From Fibrobacteria bacterium (GTDB lineage Bacteria; Fibrobacterota; Fibrobacteria; UBA11236), in contig JAYTSD010000043.1 in the NCBI GenBank assembly GCA_043745805.1, forward strand, positions 105,089-169,088: a stretch of 64,000 nt of DNA, written 5' to 3'. This document shows, piece by piece, positions 11,863-36,100 of this stretch; position 1 is the first letter of the stretch, and each line of letters begins with the position of its first letter. A program made the translations under genes and the position numbers. A model generated the notes under the pieces. The model was not told where the DNA came from. It was given only the letters and a program-made list of their open reading frames with translations, and ran no database searches.

Positions 11863-12846
11863 ATGCCAAACTATTTTTCACGTCTTGCTGAGCAGAGTGG
11901 TTTTCAATTTAAGGGAAGCCAAGGAGTAAGGCCCGAAGTATTAGAAAAAAAAGCGGGTAGTGGACTTTCTCCGCTTGAACAAGAAGCGACGATTTTAAGT
12001 CCATCGCAACCATTAGAAAAATCTTCCCTAACCTTAATAGATTCGAATAAGCATGAAATGCAACCCTCCATTTCTAAAAATGAAGAAATTAAAAATGAGC
12101 CTTCAGAGAAAGCGCCTATTAATCCGAAGGAAATTTTTGCTCAAAAACAGGTAACTCGTGAAGTTAATCCAATTGTCCAAAACATAGATTCTGTGACTGC
12201 GCCAATGGAAAATAAAACCCTTGCTGCATCGCTTTTCAATAAAGCGATATTGCCTGTGAATAAAATGAACGAAAATAGTTTATCACAGGAGTCGAAAGAG
12301 TTTAAATCACCGAGTGCTGTTAAATTAGCTGATCCTGTTGAAGCGTCAGTACCGATACAAGATTCACCTCAGTTTGAGTCAGCAGAAAAACAAGAAAGCA
12401 TTGTGTCTCTCCTTTCACCTTTGGAGAATTCTGAAAAGCCAAATTATTTTTCCAGAACTTCGGAGATTTTGAATCAAGGTCAAATCGAAAAACAGGATAT
12501 TCATTCTCTTATTCTGCAAGATGTTCAGGAATGGGTTGCGGCTTCGCCCACGGATACAAAAACGGTAAAAAGTAATATTGAAGTATTCAATACGGCTTTA
12601 AATTCAGAACCTGTATTCTCAAATGAGATAACTGATCCGTTAACACAAAATTTGTTTCGATCTAGAAATGCAGAAGTAGAAAGTTCGTTGGAACATAACT
12701 TTAATCTTTCCATTGGATCCATTAGTATTATTATTGATGAACCCACAAAACCACAGCATTCAGAATTTAAAAGCCAGCCACAACCTCAACCTACAATACC
12801 GAAAAACGAAAATCGTTTTTCGCGACTTAGTCGAAGTTATCTCTAA
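11863..12846 (+). CDS. Low-complexity eCIS hypothetical protein
   Basis: Starts 3 bp after the previous stop; S/E/K/P-rich; MPNYFSRLA start and LSIGSISIII-P C-terminal motif. Confidence 0.65.
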   Translation: MPNYFSRLAEQSGFQFKGSQGVRPEVLEKKAGSGLSPLEQEATILSPSQPLEKSSLTLIDSNKHEMQPSISKNEEIKNEPSEKAPINPKEIFAQKQVTREVNPIVQNIDSVTAPMENKTLAASLFNKAILPVNKMNENSLSQESKEFKSPSAVKLADPVEASVPIQDSPQFESAEKQESIVSLLSPLENSEKPNYFSRTSEILNQGQIEKQDIHSLILQDVQEWVAASPTDTKTVKSNIEVFNTALNSEPVFSNEITDPLTQNLFRSRNAEVESSLEHNFNLSIGSISIIIDEPTKPQHSEFKSQPQPQPTIPKNENRFSRLSRSYL

Positions 12847-17502: not shown

Positions 17503-18660
17503 ATGAACAAAGCATTTCGAGTTTATTATGGGGGGAATTTGGCTACGCAAGAACAACTCAATGCTATTGAGGAAATTGTTGTGGTACAAGAAATGGGTAT
17601 TGCTTGGGAAGCGCAGATAAAAATACCCGTTTGTATTGCTGAAGATGGTTCTTGGGAAGGTGAAAATGATTCCATCTTTGCAGAGTTTGCACGTGTTCGC
17701 ATTGAGGCTCAAATTGGTGAAAATGATTTTATCCCTCTAATCGAAGGGAGTATTCACTCAGGGGAGCCAGATTATAATGCATCGCCAGGCTTAAGTACCG
17801 TAACCGTTATTGTACATGATGACACTCGCTTACTACATCGCCAAGCCGAATCCGTTGCTTTTTCTGGACAAAGCGATAATGAAATTGTGAGTACTATATT
17901 TAATGATGCCTCGCTTGGTGAGAATGCTGAAATAGATAATCCTCCTGCTGGACCGGTACAAAATGCGGTCATAAACCAACAGGGCACAATGATGGAAATG
18001 TTACGTTCCATTGCGGCGCGTTATCAAAACTATTATGCCTATGTGCTTCCAGGATCCACAGTTGGAAATAGTAAAGGTGTTTTTAAAAAACTTCCGACAA
18101 GCCCAGATGCAGGTTTGCCTATTGCCTATTTGAGTGGCCCTAAGCAAAACATTTCGGAATTTCGCATTCGAAGAAATTCTGCTAGGGCCTCTCGTGTTGA
18201 AGGAGCTCATTTAAGTATGAGCGATAAAAGCGTTGCTAAAGCTAGCGCAAATCCGAGCGACAATATTCCTTCAGGAAGTGATAGTGCGACTAGTGGAAGG
18301 GATACCGATCTTCGTCTTCGTCGCCTTCCGTCGGGTATTGGCGATCATACTGATTTAACTGAAGCGGCCAATGGAATGGCTGAAGAATCTAGTTTCACAC
18401 TTAGTGCTGAAGGCAGTGTAATTTCAGGACTTTTTCCAGCGATATTGCAACCGTATAAAATGCTTTCCGTGCAACTTTCCAATAGTCGTTACAGTTCCAA
18501 TTATGTAATTAGCAAGGTGACACATACATTAGGCATTTCGGAATATACCCAAAGTTTTTCGGTAATAGGTAATGTGGTGTCGCCTGAGGGTAGCGCTACT
18601 ATACCTGCGCCAGCAGCAGTGATGTCTGTCAGTTTTAATGTTCAAATGGGTGTATTCTAA
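17503..18660 (+). CDS. Baseplate hub (phage late control D/gp27-like, N-half of VgrG/Afp8)
   Basis: Size and position; C-terminal YSSNYVISKVTHTL...YTQSF motif. Confidence 0.75.
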   Translation: MNKAFRVYYGGNLATQEQLNAIEEIVVVQEMGIAWEAQIKIPVCIAEDGSWEGENDSIFAEFARVRIEAQIGENDFIPLIEGSIHSGEPDYNASPGLSTVTVIVHDDTRLLHRQAESVAFSGQSDNEIVSTIFNDASLGENAEIDNPPAGPVQNAVINQQGTMMEMLRSIAARYQNYYAYVLPGSTVGNSKGVFKKLPTSPDAGLPIAYLSGPKQNISEFRIRRNSARASRVEGAHLSMSDKSVAKASANPSDNIPSGSDSATSGRDTDLRLRRLPSGIGDHTDLTEAANGMAEESSFTLSAEGSVISGLFPAILQPYKMLSVQLSNSRYSSNYVISKVTHTLGISEYTQSFSVIGNVVSPEGSATIPAPAAVMSVSFNVQMGVF

Positions 18661-20033: not shown

Positions 20034-22670
20034 ATGTTTAACGAATCCGTAATACCTTTAAGAGAAATGGCTTTGAGTGAGCCTTTGGCGGCACGTGCGC
20101 GATTGATGATCGAGGCCAGCTCATCGAATGCTCCGAATGGTATTAAGCTCATTCGCGTAATATCGGTGAATACGGTAAAGGATGAAGCATGGATAGAACT
20201 GCATTTTTTTAATCTTAATTATTTATCCGCTATCGTTACAAAATATACAAATGATAAATCCTCGGCCCAAAAAATATTTCCTATTTCGGGTGGTTCAAGA
20301 ATTCGTGCTGGAGGAGCTTTAGGGCAGGTTCAGGTGGATAGTTCACTACTTGTGGCATCCCCTTCGATTGCAATGCCTACTGCGACAAAACCCATATTGA
20401 AACTTCGCATTCATCCTATTGGAGACTATTCAACGTATACCTTAGGGATTAGCGCGCTTCCGATTTCCGGATGGATATTCGATCCCTTATTTTCTGAGAT
20501 TCGATTAAAGTTTCGTCCAGGTTGTTTCAATACCAATTGCGCACCCGAATGGGATATGGCCTTACCTCCTTTACCTGAGCCAACCATTGATTATTTAGCC
20601 AAGGATTATGGGTCTTTTCGTCAAACCATGATAACCGCCATGATGGAGCGCGTTCCGGAATGGCAACCCACAAGTGAAGCGGATCTCGATATGGTGCTCG
20701 CGGAACTTTTTAGTGTAGCTGCGGATGAACTTAGTGATTATCAAGATCGAGTGATGAATGAAGCCTATATTGCTTCTGCACGTAAACGTGTTTCCATTGC
20801 ACGGCATGCACGCTTAATGGATTATCATATTCATCAAGGCAATCAAGCTTCTACATGGTTGGCCCTCGAAATTGAACATGATGGTATGGGACAAAAAATC
20901 TTTCAGCTTGTACAAGGGCTCAAGGTATGGGCAGGCGAAAGTAATAGTGAGTCGGATAAAGAAGTAATTGATAGTTCCGTGGTTTTTATGTCGCGCCATG
21001 AAACCCAAACGGTACATCAGTATTTAAATAATATGGGGCTTTATACTTGGAGTGATACCATTACTTCGCTTAAGGCAGGATGCACTCGCGCAGATATAAA
21101 ACTTTATGATAAACTTTATTTGCATAGTCCTGATGCACCCATTGAAATCATCACCAAAGCTGCCGCCAAAGAAATACAAGATTTAATACGTCATGGAAAT
21201 ATTAAGCACTTTGTCATTGAGGAACATTTAAATCCCGAGACGGGATTGTTGGCCGGACGCGATCCTTCAAAAAGACAATTACTAAAACTGATTTCTGGAG
21301 AGGATACAAATCAATCCGCTTTGGCCATGGAAGATCCTATTACCGGTGAATGGTTTGTGCGCATACATTGGGAAAAAGCGGATGCCTTACATCGCGATTA
21401 TTGTTTTAAAGTCCACTGTCCTTCGGGAAATTCCGGCACAGGTATCGGTGCAGTTAATAATATTTCTCTCTTTCATGGAAATTTGATTGAAATATTTCAC
21501 GGCCGAGAAAAGACTGTTCTTTTCAAGGATGAAAATGTTTTATTAGGCAATGATCCCAATAAATCTTATGAGTTTCATTATGAGCGAACACGCTGGGGAG
21601 CGCTTTGCCATATACCGGATACTTTTTTGGCCTATCGTAATACAGATCCTGGCGGTGACGTAGCACCACTGTCAACAATTAACTTAACGGTTGAATTTCT
21701 CTCGGGGCCATCCGATCCATGGAATGAGGTTCCAAGCCTTATTCATAGTGACAATTCGGGTGAAGGTGGCGACCATTTTGTGGTAGAAACCGATGAAAAT
21801 CATAAAAGCCTTATTCGTTTTGGTAATAATAAAAATGGCATGGAATTGCCCGATGAGGCGACGGTTACCGTGACCTATCAATATGGCGATCCTCGTGAAG
21901 GCAATATTGGCGCGGATCGAATTATGTACTTCGATATTTCGACTGTGAAGATTGATCCTGCGACTCCAACATTTCTTTTGCATAGTTGTTGGAATCCATT
22001 CGATGTGGTTAATGGACGTGATCGAGAGCCTTTAGCGGAAATTATTCGTCGCGTGCCCGAGGCTTATCGCCAAAGACAACTGCGCGCAGTGACGCTAAAC
22101 GATTATATTGCTCGGGCCGAAGAAATTGAAGGCGTTTCTCGCGCAGTGGCAAAATATGCGTGGACAGGAAGCTGGCGTACCGTGCAAGTTACCATCGATC
22201 CAATAGGAACGAATGAACTTTCGGAACCCCTGAGAAAGCAAATAGAGTCATATTTAAACGCGGTGCGTTTAATTGGTGAAGATCTCGAAGTGCGTCCGCC
22301 GAAATTTGTTCCCTTAGAAATTCAAGTCCATCTTTGCGCCAAGCCCGACGTTTGGATAGAAGATATTCGTTTTGTTTTGGAGCAAGAGTTTTCAGTAGGC
22401 TGGACGCCGGATGGCCGCATGGGATTTTTTCATCCTGATTTATGGACATTTGGCCAATCTCTTCATGCCAGTCAAATTATGGGCCGCGCTTTTACTGTTC
22501 AGGGAGTAGAACATATTATTAGTGTTTCTATTAAACGTTGGAATTCCCCCTTTCCTCCTGTCGAATCGCTAACTCAGGTGGATTTCAATGAGATTATTCA
22601 AGTACAAAATGATTCCGATCATATGGAATTAGGTACGATTACCTTTGCTATCAAAGGAGGTCGTCAATGA
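20034..22670 (+). CDS. Baseplate J-like protein 1 (Afp11-like)
   Basis: IDYLAKDYGSFR, YQDRVMNEAY, RFGNNKNG, RAVTLNDY, WTGSW. Confidence 0.92.
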   Translation: MFNESVIPLREMALSEPLAARARLMIEASSSNAPNGIKLIRVISVNTVKDEAWIELHFFNLNYLSAIVTKYTNDKSSAQKIFPISGGSRIRAGGALGQVQVDSSLLVASPSIAMPTATKPILKLRIHPIGDYSTYTLGISALPISGWIFDPLFSEIRLKFRPGCFNTNCAPEWDMALPPLPEPTIDYLAKDYGSFRQTMITAMMERVPEWQPTSEADLDMVLAELFSVAADELSDYQDRVMNEAYIASARKRVSIARHARLMDYHIHQGNQASTWLALEIEHDGMGQKIFQLVQGLKVWAGESNSESDKEVIDSSVVFMSRHETQTVHQYLNNMGLYTWSDTITSLKAGCTRADIKLYDKLYLHSPDAPIEIITKAAAKEIQDLIRHGNIKHFVIEEHLNPETGLLAGRDPSKRQLLKLISGEDTNQSALAMEDPITGEWFVRIHWEKADALHRDYCFKVHCPSGNSGTGIGAVNNISLFHGNLIEIFHGREKTVLFKDENVLLGNDPNKSYEFHYERTRWGALCHIPDTFLAYRNTDPGGDVAPLSTINLTVEFLSGPSDPWNEVPSLIHSDNSGEGGDHFVVETDENHKSLIRFGNNKNGMELPDEATVTVTYQYGDPREGNIGADRIMYFDISTVKIDPATPTFLLHSCWNPFDVVNGRDREPLAEIIRRVPEAYRQRQLRAVTLNDYIARAEEIEGVSRAVAKYAWTGSWRTVQVTIDPIGTNELSEPLRKQIESYLNAVRLIGEDLEVRPPKFVPLEIQVHLCAKPDVWIEDIRFVLEQEFSVGWTPDGRMGFFHPDLWTFGQSLHASQIMGRAFTVQGVEHIISVSIKRWNSPFPPVESLTQVDFNEIIQVQNDSDHMELGTITFAIKGGRQ

Positions 22671-25600
22671 GCGAAGACTCTTGTGAAAATGGTTGCGTAT
22701 TACCACTGTACTTTCCTCGCCGTCCAGGTGAGAATCCACCGACTCTGCATGCTAAGGATTGTCCCTGTTGCAGCCCCGAAAATCAAATCGGATCCGACAT
22801 TAGCTCGGACAATAGACCTGCATTATCGCATTTCAACTATCGAATTGGTTCTTATGGAACCATACGTGAATGGTTATTTCATCAAATAAATCAAACTCCT
22901 AATCTCAAGAATTGGACGCATCGCGCTTCGGATGATCCGGCCATTGCTTTGTTGGAAGGCGCCTCCATTCTTGGAGATATTCTCACTTTTTATCAGGAAA
23001 CTTATGCCAATGAAGCTTTTTTAAGAACAGCAAAGTGGCGGGAGAGTATTTCCGATTTGGTGCGCTTATTGGGTTATAGACTTTCGCCGGCCATTGGCGG
23101 CAATGCAACCTTTGCTTTTGAAATTAAGAAACCGGAACCTGTTGTCATCCCGAAAGGATTCCCTCTCAAAGCGACTTTAAAAGAAATTGCTCAACCTTCC
23201 ATTTTTGAAACCAAAGAAGAAGTTAAAGCCTATCCTTGGCTGAATCGCTTCAATTTATTTAAGCCCTTGGATGAGGGTGATATTAGCCCTGCTACGACTG
23301 AGTTTTATATTACTTATCCCGAACAACTTTTAATGCCCATTGATCTTAAAGTAGGTGATCGGTTACTGGTTGGGGATCCCGATATTTCGGCTATTTTTGG
23401 AGCAAGTGTTTTTTCGAATGCGGAAATAGTAATTGTCGATTCCATCACGGAATTACATGGACTTAAGACTTATAAAATCAAGGGTAACCTAAAGCGTACT
23501 TCAAATATAGGCGCATTTTATGCCTTTCGTTTAGGACGAACCTTTCATCATTTTGGACATAATGGTCCCTTACAAATAGTTGATAAATCAAAACCGATTA
23601 AATCCACTTCTAAATCTACTTCTGAAACGAATTCAGCTCCGGCAAAAATGGAATCTTCTTCAAAGGTTCCTTATTTAAATGTCCCGTTTACTCGTCCGAT
23701 TAAAACCGATTCAGGCATTTTTTCAAATTCGGTTATAAGTCCATCGATAGGTGATGATGAATTTCCTTTAGACTCGGAAGTACAAGATATCCCCAGCAAT
23801 GCAGCCGTAATTATTCAGACACGTATTGCCTATCCGGGTGAAACGGATATTGCAAAATATACGGACTTTCAAACCTTAATTCGTTCCATTAAAAGAATTG
23901 ATTCTACTACTATGACTTGGGGTGGAATTTCAAGAACAGTCAGTAAGCTTAAAGTATCAGGTCCGGTTTCGGACTCTATTGGAATCGGTGATATAAATTT
24001 AATTAATGCCGCAATAAATACTGCGAACGTAGCAAATACTAATTCCAATAATGCCAGCTATGCAGCTATCCAAGCCCGAGACATTGCGAAAAATGCTAAA
24101 GCCGCTGCCGCTGCTGCGGCAATTGATGCTACTGATGCCGATAATGAGGTGATTTCAAAAAAGGCTGAATTTGCCACTGCTGAATCTAAAGCCGCGACAT
24201 TAGCCGTTGCTGCTGCGGTTGCAGGCACTGCTCTAAAAGATAATACTACTGATTTACGAGCGCGGGATGCTGTTTTAAAAGCGCAGGATGCCGTTAATGC
24301 TATCAACACAGCTCAAGGCTCAACTAATATTGCATCTTTATCTGCCTCTTCATCAAAACAATATTGGGATTCGCTTACTACTCCTGGTGCCGTGGCTGGT
24401 CAAATAGGGCTTTCATTACTTATTCCGTGTGGACCATTTGCCGCTGGGTTCGCATTAACGGTTGCTGGAAAAGCCAAAAATCTAGCAATAATCGTTTCTC
24501 AAAACGTAACTACGGCAAAAGGAAAAGTTGACCTTGCTAAATCAGCAGCAGATGATTCAAAAAGAGCAGTCGACGCTGTTGCTGCTGCCGCAGCTGCAGA
24601 CGTCGATGCCAAAGCACGTTATGATAAAGCCAAGGATGTTGCGGATAAAGCCGAAATTGCAGTTACTACTGCAAAAAATGATGTTACTACATCACAAACA
24701 AAAGCAGATACCGCTCATGCAAAAGCAATTCAACTTGCTCAGGATGTTGAAGGTGCAGAAGTACTTGCAGAGATGGCGGAAGACTTGGCTGAAATTACGG
24801 CCGAAATCGCAGCTCTCAAAGAAGCGATTAAGGTAACGCGCTTGTATATTGGTGATGCACTTCTGCATGAAGTAACAAGCCCCTTATTCACATTAAAGCG
24901 AGCAAAAAAAGAAACCTCTTTAATATCGTTTAATACACTCAATTTTTATGGCACGGTAGAGGAAGTAAATTCCCTCAAAGGCCGAAGAATACTTTTGGAA
25001 AAAAAGGACCAAGCTCCTAAGGTATTGAATGTAGCGGAAGTAAATTCACTTTCGGCTAATGGAACAGAAATGCTCTCGCAACTTCATGAAATTGAACTTT
25101 CAGAGTCTGTGACCTATAGCGATTTTCCCAATATAAATCCAATAGTTACGGTTTTTGGTAATCTGGTTGAGGCTAATGAAGGCAAAACCGTTCCCGAAGT
25201 AGTTCTGGGTAACGGTGATGCTACTCTAGTATTTCAGAACTTTAAACTTCCTAAAACACCGTTGACTTATCACTTAAGACCTGACAACACACCTACTGAA
25301 ACGCCGGAAGCGCAAATCTATGTAGATGGGCGCATGTGGGTAAAAGTGGACAGCTTTTTTGGACGAAGCGCTAAGGAACAAATTTATATCATTCGTGAAG
25401 ATGCTGAAGGCAATAGCTGGGTGCAATTTGGCGATGGTAAAACAGGTGCAAGATTGAGTTACGGTAATAGTAATGTTACGGCCATTTATCGCCTCGGGGC
25501 AGGATCTTTTGGACCTTTAAAAGAGGATACCAAGATTCAGGCTTTAGCTAAGCTCAAGAATCTGGATAAAATTCAGATGTTAGATGTCGTCTCGGGTGGT

Positions 25601-26269
25601 GTTGCGCCGGAGGACGGTGAAAATGCGCGTTATGCAGCCCCAGCAAAGGTGCAAAGTCTTGGACGCATAGTCAGTATTAAAGATTTTGAAGCCGAGGCGG
25701 CTGCTATTCCAGGTGTGGATAGAGTCTCCGCAGCATGGCAATTGGTAGAAAATATTCCTGCCGTAGTGATAACGGTTTTGATGGCAACTGGACGCCATGC
25801 CGAATTTGAGTCTGTCCGTAATACGCTGATTACTTTTAATTCGCTTCGCGGTGCAGGACGAACTTCTATTATCGTTGCAGAAGGAAAACGAATGTATGTT
25901 ACCGCTTCACTTCAATATATGCTGCAATCGGGATATAGAGCGGACTTAGTGGAGCCAGAAATTCGGCGCGCCTTAGGGGTAAATTTTGCGCGGACAATGG
26001 GGAAAGAGGATCAAACGGGAATTTTTAGTTTGCAGCAAAGGAATTTTGGCGCGCGAGAATATGCTTCCTCTCTCGAAGGAATGATGCAAAATATTGCGGG
26101 TGTATTATGGGCGGAGAGCAAAGCCTTTACCGAGCTCATGGAAAGTGACAGTCCTGAAGAAATAATGTTACCCATAAATTCGGAACTAAAACCCATTGTG
26201 CCTTGTAATTCCAAAAATATTCTTAGTCTCTATGACAAACATTTATTCTTAACAGCAGTAAGCGCATAG
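22667..26269 (+). CDS. Baseplate J-like protein 2 with large Ala-rich helical insertion
   Basis: DDPAIALLE, DILTFYQE..ANEAFLRTA, LVRLLGY, QFGDGKTGARL, RIVSIKDFE; insertion at ~24001-24835. Confidence 0.92.
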   Translation: MSEDSCENGCVLPLYFPRRPGENPPTLHAKDCPCCSPENQIGSDISSDNRPALSHFNYRIGSYGTIREWLFHQINQTPNLKNWTHRASDDPAIALLEGASILGDILTFYQETYANEAFLRTAKWRESISDLVRLLGYRLSPAIGGNATFAFEIKKPEPVVIPKGFPLKATLKEIAQPSIFETKEEVKAYPWLNRFNLFKPLDEGDISPATTEFYITYPEQLLMPIDLKVGDRLLVGDPDISAIFGASVFSNAEIVIVDSITELHGLKTYKIKGNLKRTSNIGAFYAFRLGRTFHHFGHNGPLQIVDKSKPIKSTSKSTSETNSAPAKMESSSKVPYLNVPFTRPIKTDSGIFSNSVISPSIGDDEFPLDSEVQDIPSNAAVIIQTRIAYPGETDIAKYTDFQTLIRSIKRIDSTTMTWGGISRTVSKLKVSGPVSDSIGIGDINLINAAINTANVANTNSNNASYAAIQARDIAKNAKAAAAAAAIDATDADNEVISKKAEFATAESKAATLAVAAAVAGTALKDNTTDLRARDAVLKAQDAVNAINTAQGSTNIASLSASSSKQYWDSLTTPGAVAGQIGLSLLIPCGPFAAGFALTVAGKAKNLAIIVSQNVTTAKGKVDLAKSAADDSKRAVDAVAAAAAADVDAKARYDKAKDVADKAEIAVTTAKNDVTTSQTKADTAHAKAIQLAQDVEGAEVLAEMAEDLAEITAEIAALKEAIKVTRLYIGDALLHEVTSPLFTLKRAKKETSLISFNTLNFYGTVEEVNSLKGRRILLEKKDQAPKVLNVAEVNSLSANGTEMLSQLHEIELSESVTYSDFPNINPIVTVFGNLVEANEGKTVPEVVLGNGDATLVFQNFKLPKTPLTYHLRPDNTPTETPEAQIYVDGRMWVKVDSFFGRSAKEQIYIIREDAEGNSWVQFGDGKTGARLSYGNSNVTAIYRLGAGSFGPLKEDTKIQALAKLKNLDKIQMLDVVSGGVAPEDGENARYAAPAKVQSLGRIVSIKDFEAEAAAIPGVDRVSAAWQLVENIPAVVITVLMATGRHAEFESVRNTLITFNSLRGAGRTSIIVAEGKRMYVTASLQYMLQSGYRADLVEPEIRRALGVNFARTMGKEDQTGIFSLQQRNFGAREYASSLEGMMQNIAGVLWAESKAFTELMESDSPEEIMLPINSELKPIVPCNSKNILSLYDKHLFLTAVSA

Positions 26270-26273
26270 GGTA

Positions 26274-28922
26274 ATGGATATGACAAAGCATAAACGCGTA
26301 GAACTTTATCGTCGCCTTCCGGAAATTTACCGAATTAAAGATGAAGGTTTACCCGAAAATTTTCTTTATGCAGGAGAGCCGGTTGAAGCTTTTCAATTGC
26401 GCAGCTATCTCGCACCTGTCGAAGATATGTTTTCGGCTATTCATGAAAATATTGAATCGCTCTATCATGATTTAAGCATCGAAACCTGTGATGATTGGGT
26501 GATTCCTTATATTGCCGACCTTTTAGGTGCTAGTCATTTATCGGGAGACCCATGGACATTGCGTGCCGATGTCGCGGATACCATTGCTCTTCGCCGTCGC
26601 AAGGGTACTCTGGGTGCTATCGAATTATTGGCTTTTATTTTGACGAAATGGGGTGTGCATTCCGTTGAGTTAATGGAAAACTTAATTTGGAATCAATCTC
26701 TCAATCATCAGCGCCCTGATGAAGGCGGAACACCGCCTTATAGTTTACCGAAGTATTTGCGTACCGCACCGATTCGTGGGGGCACGGTTAATTTACGCGA
26801 TCCATCTTTATTAGCGCAATTGAATACACCCTTTGATCCTTTTGCGCATGTGGTGGATGTGCAACCGCATGCAACAGGACAGGTTCGCTACAACCTTCCC
26901 AATCTGGCAATTTATTTTTGGCGCTTAAAAAGTTATCGCCTAAATGCTATAAAGCCACTCACGCGAATAGTAACACCGGTATCAGGTGCAGCACGTGTAG
27001 TACGTGTTAACATAGATCCTATGCCAATTAATAATCTTTCGTTCCCCTATGTTAAACCTGCCAATACACCAGCAGGAAGACCCATAACGCTTTTCAACAA
27101 TAGTCGCCTAGATTTATTTAATCAACGTCGTACGGGAACCGATAAATTGAATCTTGCTGCTATTGCACCGCGCATTTCTTCGGTCGATCAGGTTGCTGGT
27201 CCCATTCCAGTTGAGCGCTTATCCGATTTCGATATTGCCCAAGCTTACGATGACTCATTAGCTTCAGCAATGCCACAAAGCTTATCCGTGTTTACTGAAG
27301 CATCTTTTACCGCACCTCAGGAATATATCTCTATTGCAAGTTATGATGAAACAAAACCGCTACTTAATACCTTAAATATTTCTGATCAAGGATTACAGTT
27401 ACATATTCCCCATTTAACTTTTCCGAATCAAGGTTGGCCACATACCACTCTCCCTCGTAATTGGACTATACGAGGAGAAAATTTATGCGCTTGGGAAAAA
27501 GGATTACAGCCACCCTTAAAAGATCGTGAAATTGCTATTGATCCGCTTCGTGGCCGTATTTGCATGGGCGTATCAACTGATACACAAGCCAACGCTTTGC
27601 TTAATGATTTGTTGCTCACCTTTTCTTATGGAGCGGTGGGCGAGGTGGGCGCGCATCCTATTGAGTATCCAGAGTTACCCCATGATTTTAATCATAAGTT
27701 GAATCCCTCTGTAATTTATAAGTCCGTGAATTTTCGTCAAGGGCCGAGTTTACAAAAGGCTTTAGAGGAAGCACTTAAAGAAGCTCAGCAAAAAGTGAAT
27801 ATCGATCCGATGAGTCTAGGCAATGTACCTATTGTCATAGAAATTACCGATAACTTTACCCATAGCCTAAATATTTCTGCCATTCCCGTACTTGATCTTA
27901 CAACTATTATTGAAGCGGGAATGACCAGCATTAAACTTAATGCGTCGCTAATCATTCGTTCAGCAGATGGGCAAAGGCCCATTATCGAACTTGGCCAGCC
28001 GCTTGCATTTCGTCCGGCACAAGTTCTTGGGGCTAATACAACCCAGCAATTGCAATTTGATGCGGTGATGGACGCATTGTTCGTAAGACTCGAAGGATTA
28101 TATATTGCGCGTGGATTGAAATATGCGGCAGGACTTCCACTTTTAGCGCGTGCTGCACTTAATAAGTTGGAAATTTTAAACTGTACGCTTGATCCTGGTG
28201 GCTTCAGTCGCCTTGATAAATCGCGTGCTCCGCTATTATCGGGGATAAGAATATTTGCAAACTATGGTTTTGATACCCTTAATGAAAAACTCAAATTTAA
28301 GCAGGTGCCAGAAATTATTATTCAGCGTTCCATTTGCGGTGCAATTTTTACGGATGAGGGATATCGACTTTGCCTAAGCGATTCGATTATCGAATCTATT
28401 CCCATAGAAGTTACCCTTAGTGGAGGTAGCAAACGAATGGAGTCCTTTGCTATTGCAGGTGCAGCCAATATTGTGAAGGAATATGCTGGAGAAATTATTA
28501 TTAATTGTGTAACTATTTTGGGTCGAGTGCGCGCTTCCAATATTAAAGGCTACGGTGGAATTTTTAAAAATGTACTCGAAGTTTTTGATGAGCAAAGTGG
28601 CTGCTTAAAATATAGCTACTTCGCGGATGATTCGAAAAGTCCTGCATCACCCGATGAAATTAAAAATCGATTACCACAACATTTTGCTTGCGTTATGGGT
28701 AAAGATGCGAAATTAATATTTACGAGTGAAATTTTTGGTGAAGCCGCCTATTGTCAACTTTCGCTTGAATGTGATACACGCATTTTAGAAGAAGGCGTGG
28801 GCAATGATCAAATGGGAGCTTTTAATTTTCAATTAGAAGCCCATAAATGGCGCAATTTAAAAATCAGATTTCGAGAATTTATGCCGGTTGGAATCAGACC
28901 GCTTTTGATTCCAATTAATTAG
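26274..28922 (+). CDS. Baseplate/tail protein (P2 gpI-like N-terminus; Afp12-like)
   Basis: LYRRLPEIYRIKD, IETCDDWVIPYIADLLG, RRRKGT, IDPLRGR, GCLKYSY, QMGAF. Confidence 0.85.
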   Translation: MDMTKHKRVELYRRLPEIYRIKDEGLPENFLYAGEPVEAFQLRSYLAPVEDMFSAIHENIESLYHDLSIETCDDWVIPYIADLLGASHLSGDPWTLRADVADTIALRRRKGTLGAIELLAFILTKWGVHSVELMENLIWNQSLNHQRPDEGGTPPYSLPKYLRTAPIRGGTVNLRDPSLLAQLNTPFDPFAHVVDVQPHATGQVRYNLPNLAIYFWRLKSYRLNAIKPLTRIVTPVSGAARVVRVNIDPMPINNLSFPYVKPANTPAGRPITLFNNSRLDLFNQRRTGTDKLNLAAIAPRISSVDQVAGPIPVERLSDFDIAQAYDDSLASAMPQSLSVFTEASFTAPQEYISIASYDETKPLLNTLNISDQGLQLHIPHLTFPNQGWPHTTLPRNWTIRGENLCAWEKGLQPPLKDREIAIDPLRGRICMGVSTDTQANALLNDLLLTFSYGAVGEVGAHPIEYPELPHDFNHKLNPSVIYKSVNFRQGPSLQKALEEALKEAQQKVNIDPMSLGNVPIVIEITDNFTHSLNISAIPVLDLTTIIEAGMTSIKLNASLIIRSADGQRPIIELGQPLAFRPAQVLGANTTQQLQFDAVMDALFVRLEGLYIARGLKYAAGLPLLARAALNKLEILNCTLDPGGFSRLDKSRAPLLSGIRIFANYGFDTLNEKLKFKQVPEIIIQRSICGAIFTDEGYRLCLSDSIIESIPIEVTLSGGSKRMESFAIAGAANIVKEYAGEIIINCVTILGRVRASNIKGYGGIFKNVLEVFDEQSGCLKYSYFADDSKSPASPDEIKNRLPQHFACVMGKDAKLIFTSEIFGEAAYCQLSLECDTRILEEGVGNDQMGAFNFQLEAHKWRNLKIRFREFMPVGIRPLLIPIN

Positions 28923-28934
28923 AAAGAGGATAAG

Positions 28935-31900
28935 ATGAAAGGTGATTTTTCCGCTTGGAATAAAGACCGAGCTCAGAACTTTAGAGGAGTACTTCATCAA
29001 CAAGGAAGAGTATTACTCGACCGTGATTGGAATGCACAAACTGAAATATTCAATGAATGGCAGGAAACCGCTGGTAGAGATGCTTTTGGCGCAGGCGTCG
29101 CCGCCGTACCCGCTGAAGTCTCACAAAGTTTTAAAATAACCGAAGCCAAAATAGAATCTGGAAAAATCAAGATTTCCGCCAATAAGGGGCGAGTATGGGC
29201 AGATGGTTTATTAGTAGAATCATTACAAGATATTACTAATCGTATTGCCACCTATTTAAATCTTCCTCCCGCTTCCGTTCCCAATCCTGCGGCGCATCAA
29301 CGTGACACGGTGATACTGGAAACATGGATGGACGCTTTGAATCCTTTTCAAGTCCCCTCTTTACTGATTGAGCCCGCATTGGGTGGTGTCGATACTACAG
29401 AGCGTGTACTTACCTCCACACGATTTCGACTATTTCGAATGGAAGCTGGGGAAACATGTGATTCTATTATCCCTATGCTTAAAGATGATTTTTCGGCAAA
29501 AGGTAAGCTTACGGTTAAGCTTAATCCAAATACCAGTACCGATGGCGATTGCCCAGTTATAGAAAGCGGTGGTTATACAGGATTTGAACATCGACTATAT
29601 CGCATTGAAATTGCTGAAACCAAAAAGCCCGACGCTTATTTTAAGTGGTCGCAATTTAATGGCGGATTGGTCGGCACAGGCGACTTTGATGTAGTTAACC
29701 GGAAAGTGACTCTTCATGGAAACATCAATGCCATACAACATTCCGGCCTTAAAGATTTTTATCTCGAAGCATTAGAATTCGATGCGACATTGGGGGCCTG
29801 GAATGTGGCGTATGCGGCTAAGGCTACACTTGGCCCAGATCATTTGTTGACCTTACCTGCTGATGGCGTGGCAGATGAATTTTTAGGAAAAATGATGTCG
29901 GGAAGAAAGTTTTTTCGACTTTGGAATGGGATAGCCGCGATAGCCAATTTTGCTGCTGCGGATAAGGACTTACCGGATTTGGTAGGAATCAAATTGAAAT
30001 TTGATTCGGTTTTGGCGAATAAATATACTCCAGCCGATTTTTGGACCTTTGAAGTTCGTGCTGGTGGATTAGGAAATCCTGCGGTATTGTTGGGTGATCC
30101 TGTCACCTTTGCAGGTTCGCCACCGCAGGGTATTTTTTATCATCGTGTGCCTTTAGCAGAGCTAATGTGGACTAGTAATGTCATTACTGGAGATCAAATT
30201 GAAGATTGTCGTCGTGTTTTTCAACCGCTGACAAAACAAAAAACATGCTGCACCTATCGAGTCGGTGACGGTATTCATTCGCATGGTGATTTTACCAAAA
30301 TTCAGGATGCCATCAACGCACTTCCAAAAAAAGAAGGTGGAGAAGTATGCGTGTTACCTGGCTATTATGAAGAAAATATCGAAATTAAAGCGCCGCATAA
30401 TCGAAATATTATTCTCAAGGGATGCGGGCCTCGCACCGTTATTCAATTTAAAACCAATGCTCCTGTGATTCATATACATTATGGACAAAATATTAGGATT
30501 GAATCGCTGGCCATTGTGGCTCATGATGAGGGGATGGGGATTTTTCTTGAAGGCGAAGAGAAATCGGCTAACCATAAAAATAGCGAGAAATATTTGAAGG
30601 ATATTGTGCTAACCGAGTTATTTGTGAAAGCGGTAAAGAATTCTGCCATCAAAGGGCATCTAGCTCAATTTCTTACGCTCAGTAATTCCATTATACATAT
30701 TAAAGATTTTGAAACAAAAAAAGTGGCTGTGTATTTGGCCGGCGATGATATGTTAATTGAACGGTCGGAGATTCGTGTTCTCCCCGAAGTCATTACATCA
30801 CAGGATAATAAAACTAAAATTAGTTTCGATTTATTGAACAAAGTAAACGAGATGGGTAATAATTCTCTCGAAGTTGAAAATGTTGGAATTCGTTCTCGAG
30901 GTGGAATCAGCGATCCATTTGGTGTCGAATCGAATGCCAAATCTGGTAAAACTCTTCCTTCTGATGCTGAAAAGAAACAAAGTGGTAATACAGATATTTT
31001 AAATGATTTGGATTTTTTGTTACCCTCCCAGGGTGCCGCGGGTGGCCTACAAATCGGAGGTGGCTCGGATCGTGTTCGTATTATTGATAACCTTATTGTT
31101 AGTGGAACTGGAAACGGAATCACTTTAGGAAGTATTGACTTAATAAAAAATCAGGTAGTCATTACTAATCATGATCCCATCGAGCCAAAAAATCCAAAAA
31201 AAGATTGTTGCTTTCCAGATACCGGAATCGTTGATGAGGGCGATGTCACAGTCGAAGGTGCAAAACAAGTCGCAGGTCCTCCACTAAGCGATATTTTAAT
31301 TAAAGATAATCGCATCTTTAATATGGGCCGTAATGGAATCGGTGTGGTTGCTTTTTTTAGTCTGGGTGAATTGGATATTAAGATTAAGGATAAAATAGAT
31401 CTTAAGGATAAGAATTCGGTAATGGGTTTAGTTTCAGTAACTCGGCTTAAAATCATCGAAAATCGTATTGAACAATGTATGAATATTTCAATTGGCGACA
31501 TTCCCGAAAAATTCAAATGGAAAATTGGTTATGGGGGAATTTCCCTTGCTAATACCGAAACCTTGGTGATACGTGATAATACGATAGTTAATAATGGGCC
31601 AGATTTTTTAGAGCCGATTTGTGGCATTTTTATATTGTCGGGTGAAGGGATAGAAATATCTCGCAATCATATTTTGAACAATGGTATTGCTAATGAAAAA
31701 GAGGTAACTAGTAAATCTGTAAAAAGTGGCCCTCGCGGTGGAATTTTCATTGCCCGTGCTCGCCAATCTAATATTGAGTTACAGCAGGGTTTCGCTCATA
31801 AATCGAATTTTACTCGTGATTTTCCTGCCGCAAAGATTCAAGAAAATATTGTTTCCGCTCCCCTCGGGAGAAGTTTAACGCTTTTTGCAGATGGCGCGGT

Positions 31901-32654
31901 ATCCGTTATTGGCAATCAATTTACCAGCTTGGGTATTCCGCCTTTTGATTTTCTGGGTTTGATTCGCAATTTAAGTAAAATGGATAAATCAGATAAAAAT
32001 TTTCTATGGCAAATTATCGATCTCATTGCTGGGAACATTTTAATTTTCGATTTAGGTAAATCATCATTCCTCTCTAAAAATGGATTTCAGGATATAAAGA
32101 GTGGTGAGGCTGCACAAAGCTTTAAGGCTAGGAATACTTCTTCCGTAAATGACCAAATGGGAACATCAGCAGTGACTGGAAACATAAGTAAACGATATTT
32201 TTCGAACGGAAATGTTTTATTTACTAATAATCAATGCCATTTAAATTTGTTCAATTTTAAAGAAGGAATGGCTTTAGCTGCCATTTTTGTTGGTAGCTTA
32301 GATGATATTGGATTTCACAACAATCAAACTGATTGTGATATTGATGATGATTTTCTATTAGTAAATACGTTTGTTTTTGGAATTTCTTTACGCGTTAGTG
32401 ACAATCATTTCACGGAAACTATTTCTAAGGCGATTTTTTCAGCAATGACTTTGGGCGTACAAAATATTACTACCGACAATGAATCCATTCATTGCCTAAT
32501 GGTTAAAGGGACTGCTTATCTTAGTAAACACAATTTGGTATTCACTGAAATAGCCACGGTTAATGGCGATATCAGTGAATATGTTGGCCCACATCTTTGT
32601 GATGACGGCAAAAGTTCATTTGATAATTTCGGCATGGTATTTCTTCCGGGATAA
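28935..32654 (+). CDS. DUF6519-domain protein with right-handed parallel beta-helix (putative fibre/tailspike)
   Basis: MKGDFS, QQGRVLLDRDWN, YTGFEHRLYRIEI, FKWS, CCTYRVGDG, many I-x-D/E-N-x-I repeats. Confidence 0.88.
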   Translation: MKGDFSAWNKDRAQNFRGVLHQQGRVLLDRDWNAQTEIFNEWQETAGRDAFGAGVAAVPAEVSQSFKITEAKIESGKIKISANKGRVWADGLLVESLQDITNRIATYLNLPPASVPNPAAHQRDTVILETWMDALNPFQVPSLLIEPALGGVDTTERVLTSTRFRLFRMEAGETCDSIIPMLKDDFSAKGKLTVKLNPNTSTDGDCPVIESGGYTGFEHRLYRIEIAETKKPDAYFKWSQFNGGLVGTGDFDVVNRKVTLHGNINAIQHSGLKDFYLEALEFDATLGAWNVAYAAKATLGPDHLLTLPADGVADEFLGKMMSGRKFFRLWNGIAAIANFAAADKDLPDLVGIKLKFDSVLANKYTPADFWTFEVRAGGLGNPAVLLGDPVTFAGSPPQGIFYHRVPLAELMWTSNVITGDQIEDCRRVFQPLTKQKTCCTYRVGDGIHSHGDFTKIQDAINALPKKEGGEVCVLPGYYEENIEIKAPHNRNIILKGCGPRTVIQFKTNAPVIHIHYGQNIRIESLAIVAHDEGMGIFLEGEEKSANHKNSEKYLKDIVLTELFVKAVKNSAIKGHLAQFLTLSNSIIHIKDFETKKVAVYLAGDDMLIERSEIRVLPEVITSQDNKTKISFDLLNKVNEMGNNSLEVENVGIRSRGGISDPFGVESNAKSGKTLPSDAEKKQSGNTDILNDLDFLLPSQGAAGGLQIGGGSDRVRIIDNLIVSGTGNGITLGSIDLIKNQVVITNHDPIEPKNPKKDCCFPDTGIVDEGDVTVEGAKQVAGPPLSDILIKDNRIFNMGRNGIGVVAFFSLGELDIKIKDKIDLKDKNSVMGLVSVTRLKIIENRIEQCMNISIGDIPEKFKWKIGYGGISLANTETLVIRDNTIVNNGPDFLEPICGIFILSGEGIEISRNHILNNGIANEKEVTSKSVKSGPRGGIFIARARQSNIELQQGFAHKSNFTRDFPAAKIQENIVSAPLGRSLTLFADGAVSVIGNQFTSLGIPPFDFLGLIRNLSKMDKSDKNFLWQIIDLIAGNILIFDLGKSSFLSKNGFQDIKSGEAAQSFKARNTSSVNDQMGTSAVTGNISKRYFSNGNVLFTNNQCHLNLFNFKEGMALAAIFVGSLDDIGFHNNQTDCDIDDDFLLVNTFVFGISLRVSDNHFTETISKAIFSAMTLGVQNITTDNESIHCLMVKGTAYLSKHNLVFTEIATVNGDISEYVGPHLCDDGKSSFDNFGMVFLPG

Positions 32655-33194: not shown

Positions 33195-36100
33195 ATGAAG
33201 GCATTGGTTTCAGAAAAAGCTGAGGTAGAGAAGGCTGGAAAAGTCTCAACTAGCCATAGCTCTGATAGTCTACAGCCAATTTTTGGATCCGCCAACCAAT
33301 CCTCTCCTTCTATATTTCGCAAAGCGACTTGTGCTTGCGGCGGTGGTTGTTCTAGTTGTCAAGCTTCTACGAATGATTTAAAAATATCTCAACCTAATGA
33401 TCCCGCAGAAATTGAAGCGGATCAAATAGCGGATAGGGTAATGCGCATGCCGAAGGAAAATGTTTCTTCGGATAGTAACATGCAACGGTCATCCAAAGTC
33501 GATGGAAATAATCTCCAACGAAAATCATTACCCTCAAGTAGTGGAATTATTTCTCAAAGTTCTGGGCATGTGCAAAATGCCATGCAAAGTGGTGGTCGTC
33601 CTTTAGAGCTTGGCACTCGTAATTATTTTGAACCAAGATTAGGTTATGATTTAAGTTCCGTCCGTCTGCATACGGATGCAAAAGCGAATGAGTCGGCTCA
33701 TGCTCTCAATGCAAAGGCTTATACCGTTGGCAAAGATATTGTATTCGGGCGCGATGAATACAAAACAAATTCTGAGGGCGGGAATCGTTTATTGGCCCAT
33801 GAGCTTGCACATGTCACACAGAATAATTCTGTCATTCATCGGGATGAAAAACCCGATGCCGTAGTTGATCCTGTAGAAGTGAGGCTTGAAGGGCTCCCCG
33901 AAGACGGACTTAAATTAATGGCGAAGTCCACACGTGTGGATGCGAATATAATTGATAAGGAGATGGTAAAGAATGGAGATTTGGTTTTTCCCGAATTTGG
34001 GGTGCACGATAATCAAGGGAAAACCTGGGCCTGGATAAATGTGCCTAGTAGAAATGCAATAGATGTACCCATCAATAAACTTTATGCAAAAGATCGCAGG
34101 TTTAACTATCCAATTTTGCATGGATTTATTGAATTCAAATATTTGGGAAATATTACTATTCATATTACTATATATGCTAAACCACCGGTAAAGATAGATC
34201 CTCCGGCTCCGGTTTCTTTAGAACCCCCTAAACGAGATAAACCCGCTGCTCCTGAAACACAATCTGCCAAAGATTTGATCAATCATGAAACATCTTGGTA
34301 CCTAGAATTAAATGAGGAGGCGCTTGGAAAAAAGCTACTTGAATATGCAGATGGAGGAAATTTTTCTACACCCGATTCTGTACTTGAAGAGCTTGGTAGT
34401 AGTGATCGTGATGATGTCTCCTTTGAATTAATAAAGGCATCCAGCGAGGAACAGCTTTCGGGAATGGCAGAAACTGAACAGGGCAGAAAATTTTTAGATC
34501 GACTCTATGATGAATTAACCAGCGGATCTGCAGATGAAGCGGAAACGGTGCAGGCTGAGCGAATTCTCATGGCCAAGGCGCGTCGAATCGACCCGGAAAA
34601 ATTCATGAATGCGGATAAATATGCTATGGTTATTCCCTTTTCTGCTTCTGGATTTACCAAATTCAATTCAGCTTCACTTTCAGTTCATCGAATGGATAAT
34701 GGAAATATTTGGGTACGTAGCCATATGACAGGGGAACATTACCCGAATTCAAAAATTTCGCCTGAACATTATGCCATTATGTATTCGGGAATGGAAATGG
34801 ACCCTGATACAGTAGTTGGGCTTTATCTTTATGATGATGGAGGTAAAATCATTTATATGCCTGCACTCTACCTCCTTCAGCTTAGTAATAGTGAAACTAC
34901 TAAAATTGGTACTATGGCTGGTGAGGCATTTTTAACTGGCTTAACCCTTGGTGCTGGTGGTGAAGCTGTTGCCATTGCGGAAGGTGCAAATGCGTCGCGT
35001 GCAGCCATTTGGGGAGCTCGGGCATTTACGGTGCTTAAATGGACTGATAGAGCGGCTGCGGTTTTCGCTGCAGCAAGTACAATAATTAATGAGCATCGTG
35101 GTTGGATTATCGAAAAATTTGGCGAAGATGGACGTGAATTTCTAAAAGATTGGGCAAAAGTTGATCGCATTCTAATGATTTATGGGTTGGCAAGAGGTGC
35201 CGTTGCCTTAGGCCAAATGGGATGGGGTTTGCGGGCAAGCTACAAGAATTGGCGTTCGGCAGCTGATAAATTGGATGATTTGGCTGAAGATGAGAAAAAA
35301 ATAGTTAATGATTTAGCCTCAAATACGGAATCGACTATAGAGGAAATAGAAACTGCCCAAAACAATGCAGGCATGGGAACAAAAGCGGCTACCACCGATG
35401 CTGCAAAGCAAATGGATGAAGCTACTGATGATATTAAAGTTTTGAATAAAAATGATATTACCGTTTCTAATACTGGAAAAGCAACCGGTGAAGTTGAAGA
35501 GGCAGGAGCGGAGGTTGTTGAGCTTGACAAATACCGACAGCAAAAATCTTTAAAACAAAAAGCACGTCAGCCTGCTCAGCAAATGAAAAAAACCGGCACA
35601 GATGATACTGTGGCGGTAGCGCAAGATGCGCCGATTGCAGCTAATGACAATGTCGAAATAGTTTCTGATTCAACTACAACAACAACAGGTAATTCTACTC
35701 GTAACGCAAAAGTTACTCCTATTAATGGGCAACCGAAAGTTGACCTTTCTGAATTTACCAATGGTGCGAAGCTAGAAAAAGATAAATGGATTGGGAAAAA
35801 ATGGAAAAAAGGAGATCCCCTTCCTGAGGGTTATGTCAGCCTTGAAGATGGTGGAATACGAAGGGGTCCTGGATTTCGTGAAAAAAATTATGTACCCCTT
35901 GAAGTAAAAGAAGGAAAGCTTGTTGTGGGAACGGGTGGTGAACGCATAAGTAACCCCTCGGTAATGAATCGGAATTATAAGAAGGGATTGGCTCAAGATT
36001 TGGAAGTTAAAAATCCAAGTTGGTCAAAGGCAAGATTAGAAAAGGAAGTGGCAAAGGAAGTTGAAAAAAATGCCGTTCATCATTTAATACCTGATAATGT

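Follow-up and report, generated by a model that had tools for sequence, protein, structure and literature searches.

A predicted helical arm with an exchangeable distal cassette in a baseplate protein of a contractile injection system

The window analysed here, a stretch of 64,000 nucleotides (nt) from a Fibrobacteria bacterium (contig JAYTSD010000043.1), encodes a contractile injection system (CIS) whose second gp6/Baseplate-J paralogue, which we have designated J2, carries an insertion of about 287 amino acids (aa). The insertion is predicted to form a long antiparallel two-helix arm, and comparisons between homologous genes indicate that the distal half of this arm, tip included, is exchanged as a cassette. 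An original prediction, made from the letters of the window alone, had pointed to a helical hairpin with a hydrophobic tip in this protein and had suggested that it could tether the CIS to the membrane of the producer or grip a target membrane; the exchange of the distal cassette is an addition to that prediction. The arm probably serves to touch a membrane or a cell surface. Our preferred reading, to which we give a probability of about 0.4, is that it equips the CIS baseplate with an exchangeable contact module, mounted on a stalk, that touches the envelope of the target.

The insertion in J2 and the architecture of the arm

The host protein and the parts of the arm were located as follows:

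22667–26269, + strand: J2, second gp6/Baseplate-J (Cis11-like) paralogue, 1200 aa, host of the insertion (open reading frame (ORF); fold and profile matches)
23987–24847, + strand: insertion, J2 residues 441–727, about 287 aa (alignments; the AlphaFold2 (AF2) model places it between strands 421–430 and 725–727)
23993–24226, + strand: basal outbound helix, residues 443–520, with Ala in heptad register at 449, 456, 463, 470 and onward (AF2; Ala conservation)
24227–24253, + strand: junction motif 1, A-L-K524-D525-x-x-T-D529, at the kink at 521–526, left cassette breakpoint (conservation, AF2, DNA breakpoint)
24242–24586, + strand: exchangeable distal cassette, residues 526–640, both distal helices and the tip (segment identities, sliding identity, DNA breakpoints)
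24371–24469, + strand: tip, residues 569–601, 33 aa, Gly/Pro-rich and free of D, E, K and R (composition; AF2 confidence about 28–30)
24587–24610, + strand: junction motif 2, AAAAD-V-DA, residues 641–648, at the kink at 642–645, right cassette breakpoint (conservation, AF2, DNA breakpoint)
24602–24826, + strand: basal return helix, residues 646–720, with Ala at 648, 655, 662, 669, 676 and 683 (AF2; Ala conservation)

A homologue search with J2 gave 292 matches, the best 120 of which were aligned (P0001 is the J2 of the window, used as the query; other P numbers denote its homologues and L numbers denote loci). The spacing between the invariant residues G419 and I728 was 308–332 aa in 14 carriers of the insertion, at most 40 aa in 104 sequences and 96–104 aa in two. 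The non-carrier loop at the insertion site was 26–32 aa long in the sequences inspected. On the evidence of this alignment and of the model, the insertion is clean and rare and lies in a loop between two beta-strands, and the clean insertion that the original prediction had expected from an alignment was thereby found, 104 of the 120 best homologues having a short loop only. The insert contained 27% Ala compared to 7.6% in the remainder of J2. The coordinates in that prediction also held: 24001 and 24835 correspond to residues 445 and 723, about 128 residues lead out to the motif at 24383–24469 and about 122 lead back, and the normal baseplate sequence resumes, being conserved from residue 728, with LLHEVTSP starting at residue 732.

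A misassembly, which had been named as a possible source of the insert, was not indicated. In each of two sequencing runs, which may be the source of the window, positions 23700–25100 lay in a single identical contig, and in a third run of the same study assembled pieces bridged both junctions (23830–24060 and 24606–24924). No assembly joints or loose ends were found at the junctions in the runs examined, and homologous inserts were also present in assemblies from several independent sources. Within positions 23800–25000 the DNA contained runs of Ala codons as its only repeats, with no inverted or tandem repeats.

When the insert alone was searched against 1.84 billion representatives, the only relative was P0002, itself a J2 protein, and a word-based search limited to the insert found only P0003 besides the query; as each of these searches finds a single relative, neither can be used to count carriers. 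The ESM Atlas gave no usable match to the insert, and Pfam searches of the other length variants of the J2 family gave nothing informative. Two sequences, P0071 and P0077, had 96–104 aa at the insertion site (window 23987–24847) and both were sisters of the carrier P0016. One of them resembles a short helical hairpin that lacks the hydrophobic tip, the other has an acidic, degenerate sequence, and by their sequences the two look like stages of insert loss.

In the full-length AF2 model the arm consisted of helix 443–520, a kink at 521–526, helix 527–568, an irregular stretch at 569–604, helix 605–641, a second kink at 642–645 and helix 646–720, with 126 helical residues outbound and 116 on the return. 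A model of the insert alone was built with 15 insert-bearing relatives. The block means of its predicted local distance difference test (pLDDT) were above 90 at 452–491 and 662–711, 66–79 in the distal arms and 40–51 at the tip. About 290 residues of this model superposed on elongated two-helix stalks, which shows that the hairpin is modelled as extended rather than as folded back into a bundle. The arm is thus modelled as an antiparallel two-helix stalk which, if straight, would be about 18–19 nm long (126 × 0.15 nm), in agreement with the length proposed originally. Its basal segment of about 78 residues would account for about 12 nm and its distal segment of about 42 residues, which leads to an uncharged Gly/Pro-rich turn of 29–36 residues, for about 6 nm.

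The conservation of alanine pointed in the same direction. Ala was found in at least 12 of the 14 carriers at positions 449, 456, 463 and 470, at 535, 539, 542, 546, 549 and 556, and at 648, 655, 662, 669, 676 and 683. The Ala-frequency profile of the 14 carriers had a period of 3.45–3.65 residues in all four arm segments, and the observed value was reached by 5, 0, 2 and 0 of 2000 shuffles. This periodicity supports a tight antiparallel coiled coil with an alanine core, a type known as 'Alacoil', and together with the AF2 helices running in both directions it bears out the hairpin of the original prediction. A heptad test based on hydropathy was tried and rejected. With a single sequence it was not significant in three of the four helices (199, 147, 37 and 70 of 1000 shuffles reached the observed value), and with the average of 14 sequences it was significant in the return arm only (265, 201, 18 and 19 of 2000 shuffles). 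As hydropathy periodicity was a poor test here, the periodicity of Ala conservation was used instead.

In junction motif 1, K524, D525 and D529 were invariant in 14 of 14 carriers. In junction motif 2, A642 was invariant and D645, A646 and A648 were present in 13 of 14, followed by R651. Both motifs coincided with the predicted helix kinks at 521–526 and 642–645, which suggests a conserved elbow with LKD..TD placed opposite AAADADA.

Exchange of the distal cassette and distribution of the arm

Pairwise comparison of carriers revealed the distal part of the arm (527–641) to be far more diverged than the protein on either side of it. P0008 and P0014 were 98% identical in the core, 93% in basal arm 1 and 94% in basal arm 2, with 24% identity in the distal part; the corresponding values were 85%, 77%, 69% and 29% for P0004 and P0005, and 74%, 49%, 46% and 18% for P0001 and P0002. 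The distal part of P0005 was 59% identical to that of P0003, and that of P0004 was 60–65% identical to those of P0002 and P0006. In sliding windows, the identity dropped at about residues 520–530 and recovered at about 634–640.

The boundaries were also visible in the DNA. Loci L050 and L002, which belong to related genomes, shared 97.7% identity over 2553 nt, after which 412 nt of L050 (2811–3222) and 367 nt of L002 (11554–11920) could not be aligned by blastn, followed by 97.1% identity over 1075 nt. At the protein level the replaced block follows directly on ...AAALKD and stops immediately ahead of AAAADADA. The two cassettes (138 aa and 123 aa) have different tip types, one with an Asp-Pro turn and the other with a Pro/Gly turn and several Asp, and their difference in length means that the length of the arm is not strictly fixed. 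These comparisons of sequences indicate that the distal half of the arm is swapped as a unit, at two joints, between genes that are otherwise nearly identical. The heptad Ala positions were retained across cassette types, and the tip was the most variable part, with 0–41% identity even within one cassette type. No silent copies of the cassette were detected at E ≤ 10 in the genome of the window (3.95 Mb, 99.2% complete), which argues for exchange between genomes, and no immunity-like gene was found beside the cassette in the loci compared.

To follow the insertion across the family, a FastTree of the J2 core was made from the 120 aligned rows after the insert columns had been taken out; the tree was a quick one, and its supports are local only. 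The three insert states required 6 changes on it, and carriers of the long insert stood in at least 5 places. The carrier P0009 was nested among eight non-carriers (support 99), and P0071 and P0077 were placed as sisters of P0016 (support 99). Among 77 loci of species-representative genomes the insert was found only in L001 (Pseudaquabacterium terrae S2) and L002 (a Fibrobacteria metagenome-assembled genome). Among the kin of the window, 7 of 61 genomes, its own included, matched J2 at E ≤ 1e-20, and in its own family two genomes had the carrier form, their loci being the same sequences as L002 and L050. Two carrier and nine non-carrier loci were collinear and similarly close to the window, with structural proteins that were mostly 50–84% identical. 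No carrier-specific genes were found among the window genes within about 10 kb in these 11 loci, genes unique to non-carriers not having been searched for. The genome of the window encodes TonB and other diderm traits, and the CIS clade, which is widespread and unstudied, was found in Acidobacteriota, Nitrospirota, Fibrobacterota and Burkholderiales.

Six J2 proteins that form a sister clade (P0033, P0057, P0068, P0076, P0079 and P0080; 1333–1357 aa) had a different insert of about 430 aa, with 21–27% Ala, in another loop, near J2 residue 240 (about residues 236–256, DNA about 23372–23434). Four of the six, for example P0033 and P0079, had uncharged Gly/Pro-rich stretches of 20–30 aa at a similar relative position within the insert. 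A hidden Markov model (HMM) of the 14 inserts gave negative scores with all six sister-clade inserts (-13.6 to -34.2), two of which scored about 4–5 standard deviations above their own shuffles and the others 1–2, and no homology is claimed. Judged from its sequence, the sister-clade insert may be a second, independent stalk-and-tip device.

The patchy distribution would suit an insert without a role, a fast-evolving, low-complexity helical segment tolerated in a surface loop. Such a dispensable decoration would be expected to come and go as the 6 changes on the core tree and the nested position of P0009 suggest; the short forms P0071 and P0077 would be its remnants, and the insert is almost without detectable relatives (one match in 1.84 billion representatives). 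Against this, the reading frame, the equal lengths of the arms, the heptad Ala and the two junction motifs have been kept across cores that are just 48–60% identical, and the architecture survives the swapping of cassettes. The recurrence of an Ala-rich insert with an uncharged segment at a second site in the sister clade also argues for a function. We consider an insert without a role to be quite improbable.

The tip and the proposed function of the arm

The tip contains the motif named in the original prediction, PGAVAGQIGLSLLIPCGPFAAGFALTVAG, which corresponds to J2 residues 573–601 (DNA 24383–24469), and the segment 569–604 (36 residues) is 25% Gly plus Pro. In the insert-only model, a short helix at 575–583 was followed by a loop at 584–589 around IPCGP and by a helix that runs from 590 into the return arm. 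The sequence of the tip was not conserved among the 14 carriers, half of which (7 of 14) had Asp-Pro at the turn. The original prediction had described the midpoint of the hairpin as hydrophobic and Gly-rich. It is indeed uncharged, rich in Gly and Pro and situated at the turn; its hydrophobicity is only moderate, with a 19-residue Kyte-Doolittle maximum of 1.77 in P0001 compared to 1.99 for the soluble ATPase and 1.73 for the cap protein of the same locus. The summed insertion energy on the Hessa scale was +3.9 for P0001 and ranged from +2.2 to +6.9, being positive in 14 of 14 carriers. The halves of the P0001 tip on either side of IPCGP are about 13 and 11 residues long, short of the 18–20 or so that each would need in a transmembrane hairpin. 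A classical transmembrane hairpin was rejected on account of these short halves, the Kyte-Doolittle value of 1.77 and the positive Hessa sum. The tip may insert shallowly, in the manner of fusion loops, or offer a hydrophobic surface that docks on a protein.

According to our preferred reading, J1 (the first Baseplate-J paralogue), J2 and the P2_I-like protein of the locus would form a wedge by analogy with the Streptomyces coelicolor CIS (PDB 9gtp), in which, as the accessible part of the source describes it, the wedge holds two Cis11 and one Cis12, with Cis11 peripheral and exposed (PMC12237407). Each particle would then have six arms. These would reach out from the baseplate so that the tips make the first contact with the envelope of the target cell, either by dipping shallowly into a lipid leaflet, as a fusion loop does, or by docking on a component of the envelope, and this contact would hold the baseplate in place or help to trigger firing. 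The basal stalk co-evolves with J2, the piece beyond the elbow is exchangeable, and its exchange would retune the binding of the tip in the way that the tips of phage and tailocin tail fibres are retuned. Exchange of the distal half leans towards such a role in specificity or contact over a plain tether to the membrane of the producer.

In a more specific form of the proposal, the six 18-nm coiled-coil legs would enter the lipid leaflet directly with their fusion-loop-like tips, with no protein receptor or tail fibre involved, and the distal cassette would be a plug-in site, with LKD and AAADADA as its joints, for retuning the grip. We regard this version as doubtful. If it were true, a CIS would here be gripping a membrane in a manner not seen before, and if, in addition, the leaflet were that of the inner membrane of the producer, the legs would explain in molecular terms the 'feet' that tomography has shown, so far without an explanation, beneath T6SS-iv-like machines (T6SS, type VI secretion system).

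The tips might alternatively face the producer itself, six of them dipping into the cytoplasmic face of the inner membrane and holding a cytoplasmic CIS perpendicular to it, as the 'feet' of T6SS-like and thylakoid-CIS-like machines would do. Anchoring by parts of the baseplate has precedents in the available portions of three reports. The Cis12 extension of the Anabaena thylakoid CIS (tCIS) touches the thylakoid membrane and a transmembrane helix of Cis13 penetrates it (Weiss et al. 2022, PMC8894136); six feet-like densities and a Cis11 cage touch the membrane in the haloarchaeal T6SS (PMC11566945); and the same contacts are made in Aureispira and T6SS-iv (bioRxiv 10.1101/2024.01.29.577165). 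The Streptomyces Cis11 is furthermore predicted, in the accessible text, to meet the membrane protein CisA (PMC12237407). Within our locus, no other structural protein had a transmembrane-like segment on a simple hydropathy scale, and a marginally hydrophobic tip suits insertion from the cytoplasm after assembly. On the other hand, the wholesale exchange of cassettes between near-identical genes would not be expected of an anchor in the cell's own bilayer, neither half of the P0001 tip (about 13 and about 11 residues) is long enough to cross one, and Asp-Pro stands at the turn in 7 of 14 carriers. A spacer of 18 nm exceeds any described anchor, and 104 of 120 orthologues do without the arm, with nothing among the genes compared that would compensate for its absence (no search for genes unique to non-carriers was made). 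As the exchange is poorly explained by a tether, anchoring to the producer was given a lower figure than contact with the target, and we think it rather unlikely.

The arms might also point inwards, as an internal strut, a cage or a trigger. They would then lie along the spike or the baseplate with their tips packed together or on a baseplate protein, and the elbow would let them swing away at firing. J2 is of the Cis11 type and has a large additional beta-region, burial of the tips would solve the solubility of six greasy loops, and both the conserved elbow motifs and the presence of SMC, MukB and cohesin elbows among the structural matches fit this arrangement. A packing interface should be conserved, however, and the tip is the part that varies most (0–41% identity within one cassette type). 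The cassettes have been swapped without accompanying changes in the neighbouring genes compared, and the cages described in the available sources are extensions of globular or beta structure rather than helical hairpins. We consider a strut or cage unlikely.

Several observations weigh against a contact module as well. The pLDDT was put at 47–70 in the distal arms and at less than 50 in the tip, and the structural matches of the stalk lie within the range of scores that long helices reach by arrangement alone. The hydrophobicity of the tip is marginal and uneven, with 19-residue Kyte-Doolittle maxima of 1.06–2.15 among the carriers, only 7 of 14 of which had an uncharged tip stretch of at least 25 aa (25–33 aa, their longest). 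The majority of orthologous loci function with no arm, and armed and armless loci share one and the same candidate fibre, a DUF6519/beta-helix protein. The high variability of the tip could reflect weak constraint rather than selection for specificity.

To our knowledge, the way in which a CIS finds and holds its target membrane is understood in a few systems: the tail fibres of the antifeeding prophage (AFP) and Photorhabdus virulence cassettes (PVC), TssJLM of the T6SS, and Cis12 and Cis13 of the thylakoid CIS. A contact module in J2 would add a different solution, in which the contact device lies inside a gp6-like wedge protein on an internal coiled-coil stalk and ends in an exchangeable, sharply bounded cassette. 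For a widespread CIS clade it would provide a candidate, open to testing, for anchoring or for contact with the target. It would also be a clean example of cassette evolution within a structural protein, and its natural swap sites could guide efforts to direct engineered injection systems to new targets. Experiments may be possible with one of the carriers, Pseudaquabacterium terrae S2 (L001), which is a named strain.

The CIS locus and comparison with known systems

The label 'Baseplate-J protein' given to J2 in the original prediction is apt for its fold and context; the Pfam Baseplate_J signature itself falls on the preceding ORF (20034–22670), designated J1. J2 matched no Pfam family at E ≤ 0.01, Baseplate_J included. 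The NCBIfam model TIGR02243 ('putative baseplate assembly protein') matched J2 residues 831–1151 (E 7.5e-36) with 123.9 bits, below the cut-off of 155.8, and J1, at 153.8 bits, was likewise under it. BLASTP aligned J1 with J2 in two collinear pieces (E 3e-7 and 6e-7), from which J2 is taken to be a distant paralogue of J1. No PDB chain was matched by the J2 sequence at E ≤ 0.01. Its family profile matched the 9gtp_1K 'Baseplate protein J-like' chain (E 0.0026) and phage gp6 (E 0.0044).

The full-length AF2 model of J2 (mean pLDDT 78.6) had a large extra beta-region. In Foldseek it was matched best by chain 9gtp_1G of the Streptomyces CIS baseplate (E 3.7e-16); next came T4 gp6 (5iv5_B and 5iv5_A, about 5e-13), Klebsiella phage gp6, P1 BplA and Anabaena 7b5h_AH (2.2e-10). 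Comparison by VIA with T4 gp6, KP1 gp6 and the Streptomyces chain gave Z 12.6–13.2 over 383–450 aligned residues. The position of the gene, after gp25 (19645) and J1 (20034) and before the P2_I-like gene (26274), with J2 starting at 22667, is typical of gp6 wedge proteins, and by modelled fold and gene context J2 is a gp6/Cis11-type wedge protein. In a phage collection 13 records matched J2, the 10 listed covering only residues 870–1107, and in a plasmid collection 18 records matched it in N- and C-terminal pieces; no phage or plasmid record covered at least 80% of J2.

The other features of the locus were:

8065–41682, + strand: whole CIS locus (Pfam scan; gene order the same in 11 related loci)
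8065, + strand: sheath gene (Pfam)
10491, + strand: gp19-type tube gene (Pfam)
12861, + strand: Pvc16_N (Pvc16-like) cap gene (Pfam)
14081, + strand: AAA ATPase gene (Pfam)
18660, + strand: VgrG-type OB spike gene (Pfam)
19305, + strand: PAAR-like protein, weak DUF4280 match (Pfam)
19645, + strand: gp25 gene (Pfam)
20034–22670, + strand: J1, first Baseplate-J paralogue, 878 aa, presumed wedge partner (Pfam Baseplate_J E 1.7e-6; TIGR02243 153.8 bits)
26274–28922, + strand: P2 gpI-like (Cis12-like) protein, presumed third wedge subunit (Pfam Tail_P2_I E 0.0012, 19.1 bits, below the cut-off of 20.6; gene order as in other CIS loci)
28935–32654, + strand: DUF6519/beta-helix protein, 1239 aa (N-terminal DUF6519; weak beta-helix, pectinesterase and NosD-like matches)
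33195–36467, 36585–38753 and 38629–41682, + strand: three eCIS_core (PF13699) proteins (Pfam; the first also with an AHH nuclease domain)

This make-up, with three eCIS_core proteins, one of which has an AHH nuclease domain, fits a cargo-delivering CIS. The three are its likely cargo; the ORFs of the second and third overlap by 125 nt, and of all 19-mers in the locus the most hydrophobic lies in the third (Kyte-Doolittle 2.13, residue 521). The DUF6519/beta-helix protein, which occurs in armed and armless loci alike, may be a fibre or a protein that binds a receptor. Two ORFs without a Pfam or NCBIfam match, at 11863–12846 (+ strand; 327 aa, rich in Ser, Pro, Glu and Gln) and 17503–18660 (+ strand; 385 aa), may by their position have a role as tape measure or tube initiator. 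The tandem of diverged gp6-like paralogues (20034–26269) would imply that the wedge is a fixed heterotrimer in which the inner gp6 position differs from the outer one. In haloarchaeal clusters two cis11 genes are mentioned in the accessible text (PMC11566945).

A full-text search of open-access papers and bioRxiv found no description of a helical arm of this kind on a CIS baseplate, in keeping with the original statement that the architecture was unfamiliar from described baseplates, and the name 'Cis11b' occurred in none of the papers covered. The architecture of the arm and the exchange of its cassette thus appear to be undescribed, and they belong with the lineage-specific extensions of the baseplate that serve contact or anchoring. 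Comparisons with published CIS in the following are made with the available portions of the sources cited above.

The closest parallel in arrangement is the Anabaena tCIS, which likewise has a six-fold addition to baseplate or fibre that reaches a membrane and is present in some lineages only. The hosts differ, being Cis12 and Cis13 there and a Cis11-type gp6 paralogue here, and so do the elements themselves: the tCIS has a C-terminal triple helix, a genuine transmembrane helix and a helix that is putatively amphipathic, J2 an internal coiled-coil hairpin with a hydrophobic turn. Exchange of cassettes is not described in the portion available. Neither J2 nor the insert showed a sequence relation to the Cis12 extension or to Cis13 (PDB including 7b5h, E ≤ 0.01), and the locus contains no small Cis13-like fibre protein with a transmembrane helix, the 19-residue hydropathy maxima of its 18 structural ORFs being at most 1.99 on a simple scale.

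The Cis11 cages of AlgoCIS, the tCIS, the Aureispira T6SS and the haloarchaeal T6SS resemble the arm in being extra parts of gp6-like wedge proteins around or beyond the spike, and they touch the membrane in two of these systems. They are described as a domain, whereas the arm of J2 is a predicted helical hairpin of 18 nm, a distinction that is drawn from the descriptions. The Streptomyces coelicolor CIS provides the best structural match to J2 and also has two gp6-like subunits per wedge. Those are two copies of one armless Cis11, with membrane contact made through the separate CisA, in contrast to the two diverged paralogues here, one of them armed.

Outside CIS, the Foldseek search of the insert that had been proposed as a check gave no match at E ≤ 0.001. 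The best matches were generic stalks, namely chemoreceptors, SMC, the dynein stalk, PrgA and the R-domains of colicins. A search that did not use Foldseek superposed the insert on PrgA (Z 15.3, 288 aligned), the chemoreceptor 2ch7 (295 aligned), colicin E9 (Z 12.7) and colicin E2 (Z 11.3). The likeness to coiled-coil stalks, which include the hairpins of colicins E2, E3 and E9, PrgA, chemoreceptors, dynein and the hairpins of efflux adaptors, lies in arrangement and length (VIA Z 10.8–15.3 over 123–295 residues) and in a binding tip held at a distance. It is an analogy only, without sequence similarity, and none of these stalks is part of a baseplate.

The channel helices of TcA and alpha-pore-forming toxins of the MakA/ClyA type have long helix pairs with a hydrophobic loop that enters the membrane, and the original prediction had likened the arm to the tongue of such toxins. 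This likeness appears to be non-specific. MakA (7p3r_A) ranked 25 in the Foldseek search of the insert (E 0.064, TM-score 0.25–0.27) and was absent from the 50 best rows of the Foldseek-independent search, in which TcdA4 ranked 26 (Z 9.5, root-mean-square deviation 9.9). These matches are weak, and the tail and head domains of the toxins are absent here.

In phage tail fibres and tailocins the receptor-binding tips are exchanged, and polymorphic toxins have variable ends behind conserved junction motifs. The cassette of the arm differs from both in being internal and bounded on both sides, in lying in a wedge protein rather than at a C-terminal end, and in having no immunity-like gene beside it. 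What it shares with them is a variable module with short conserved bounding motifs that is swapped between near-identical genes.

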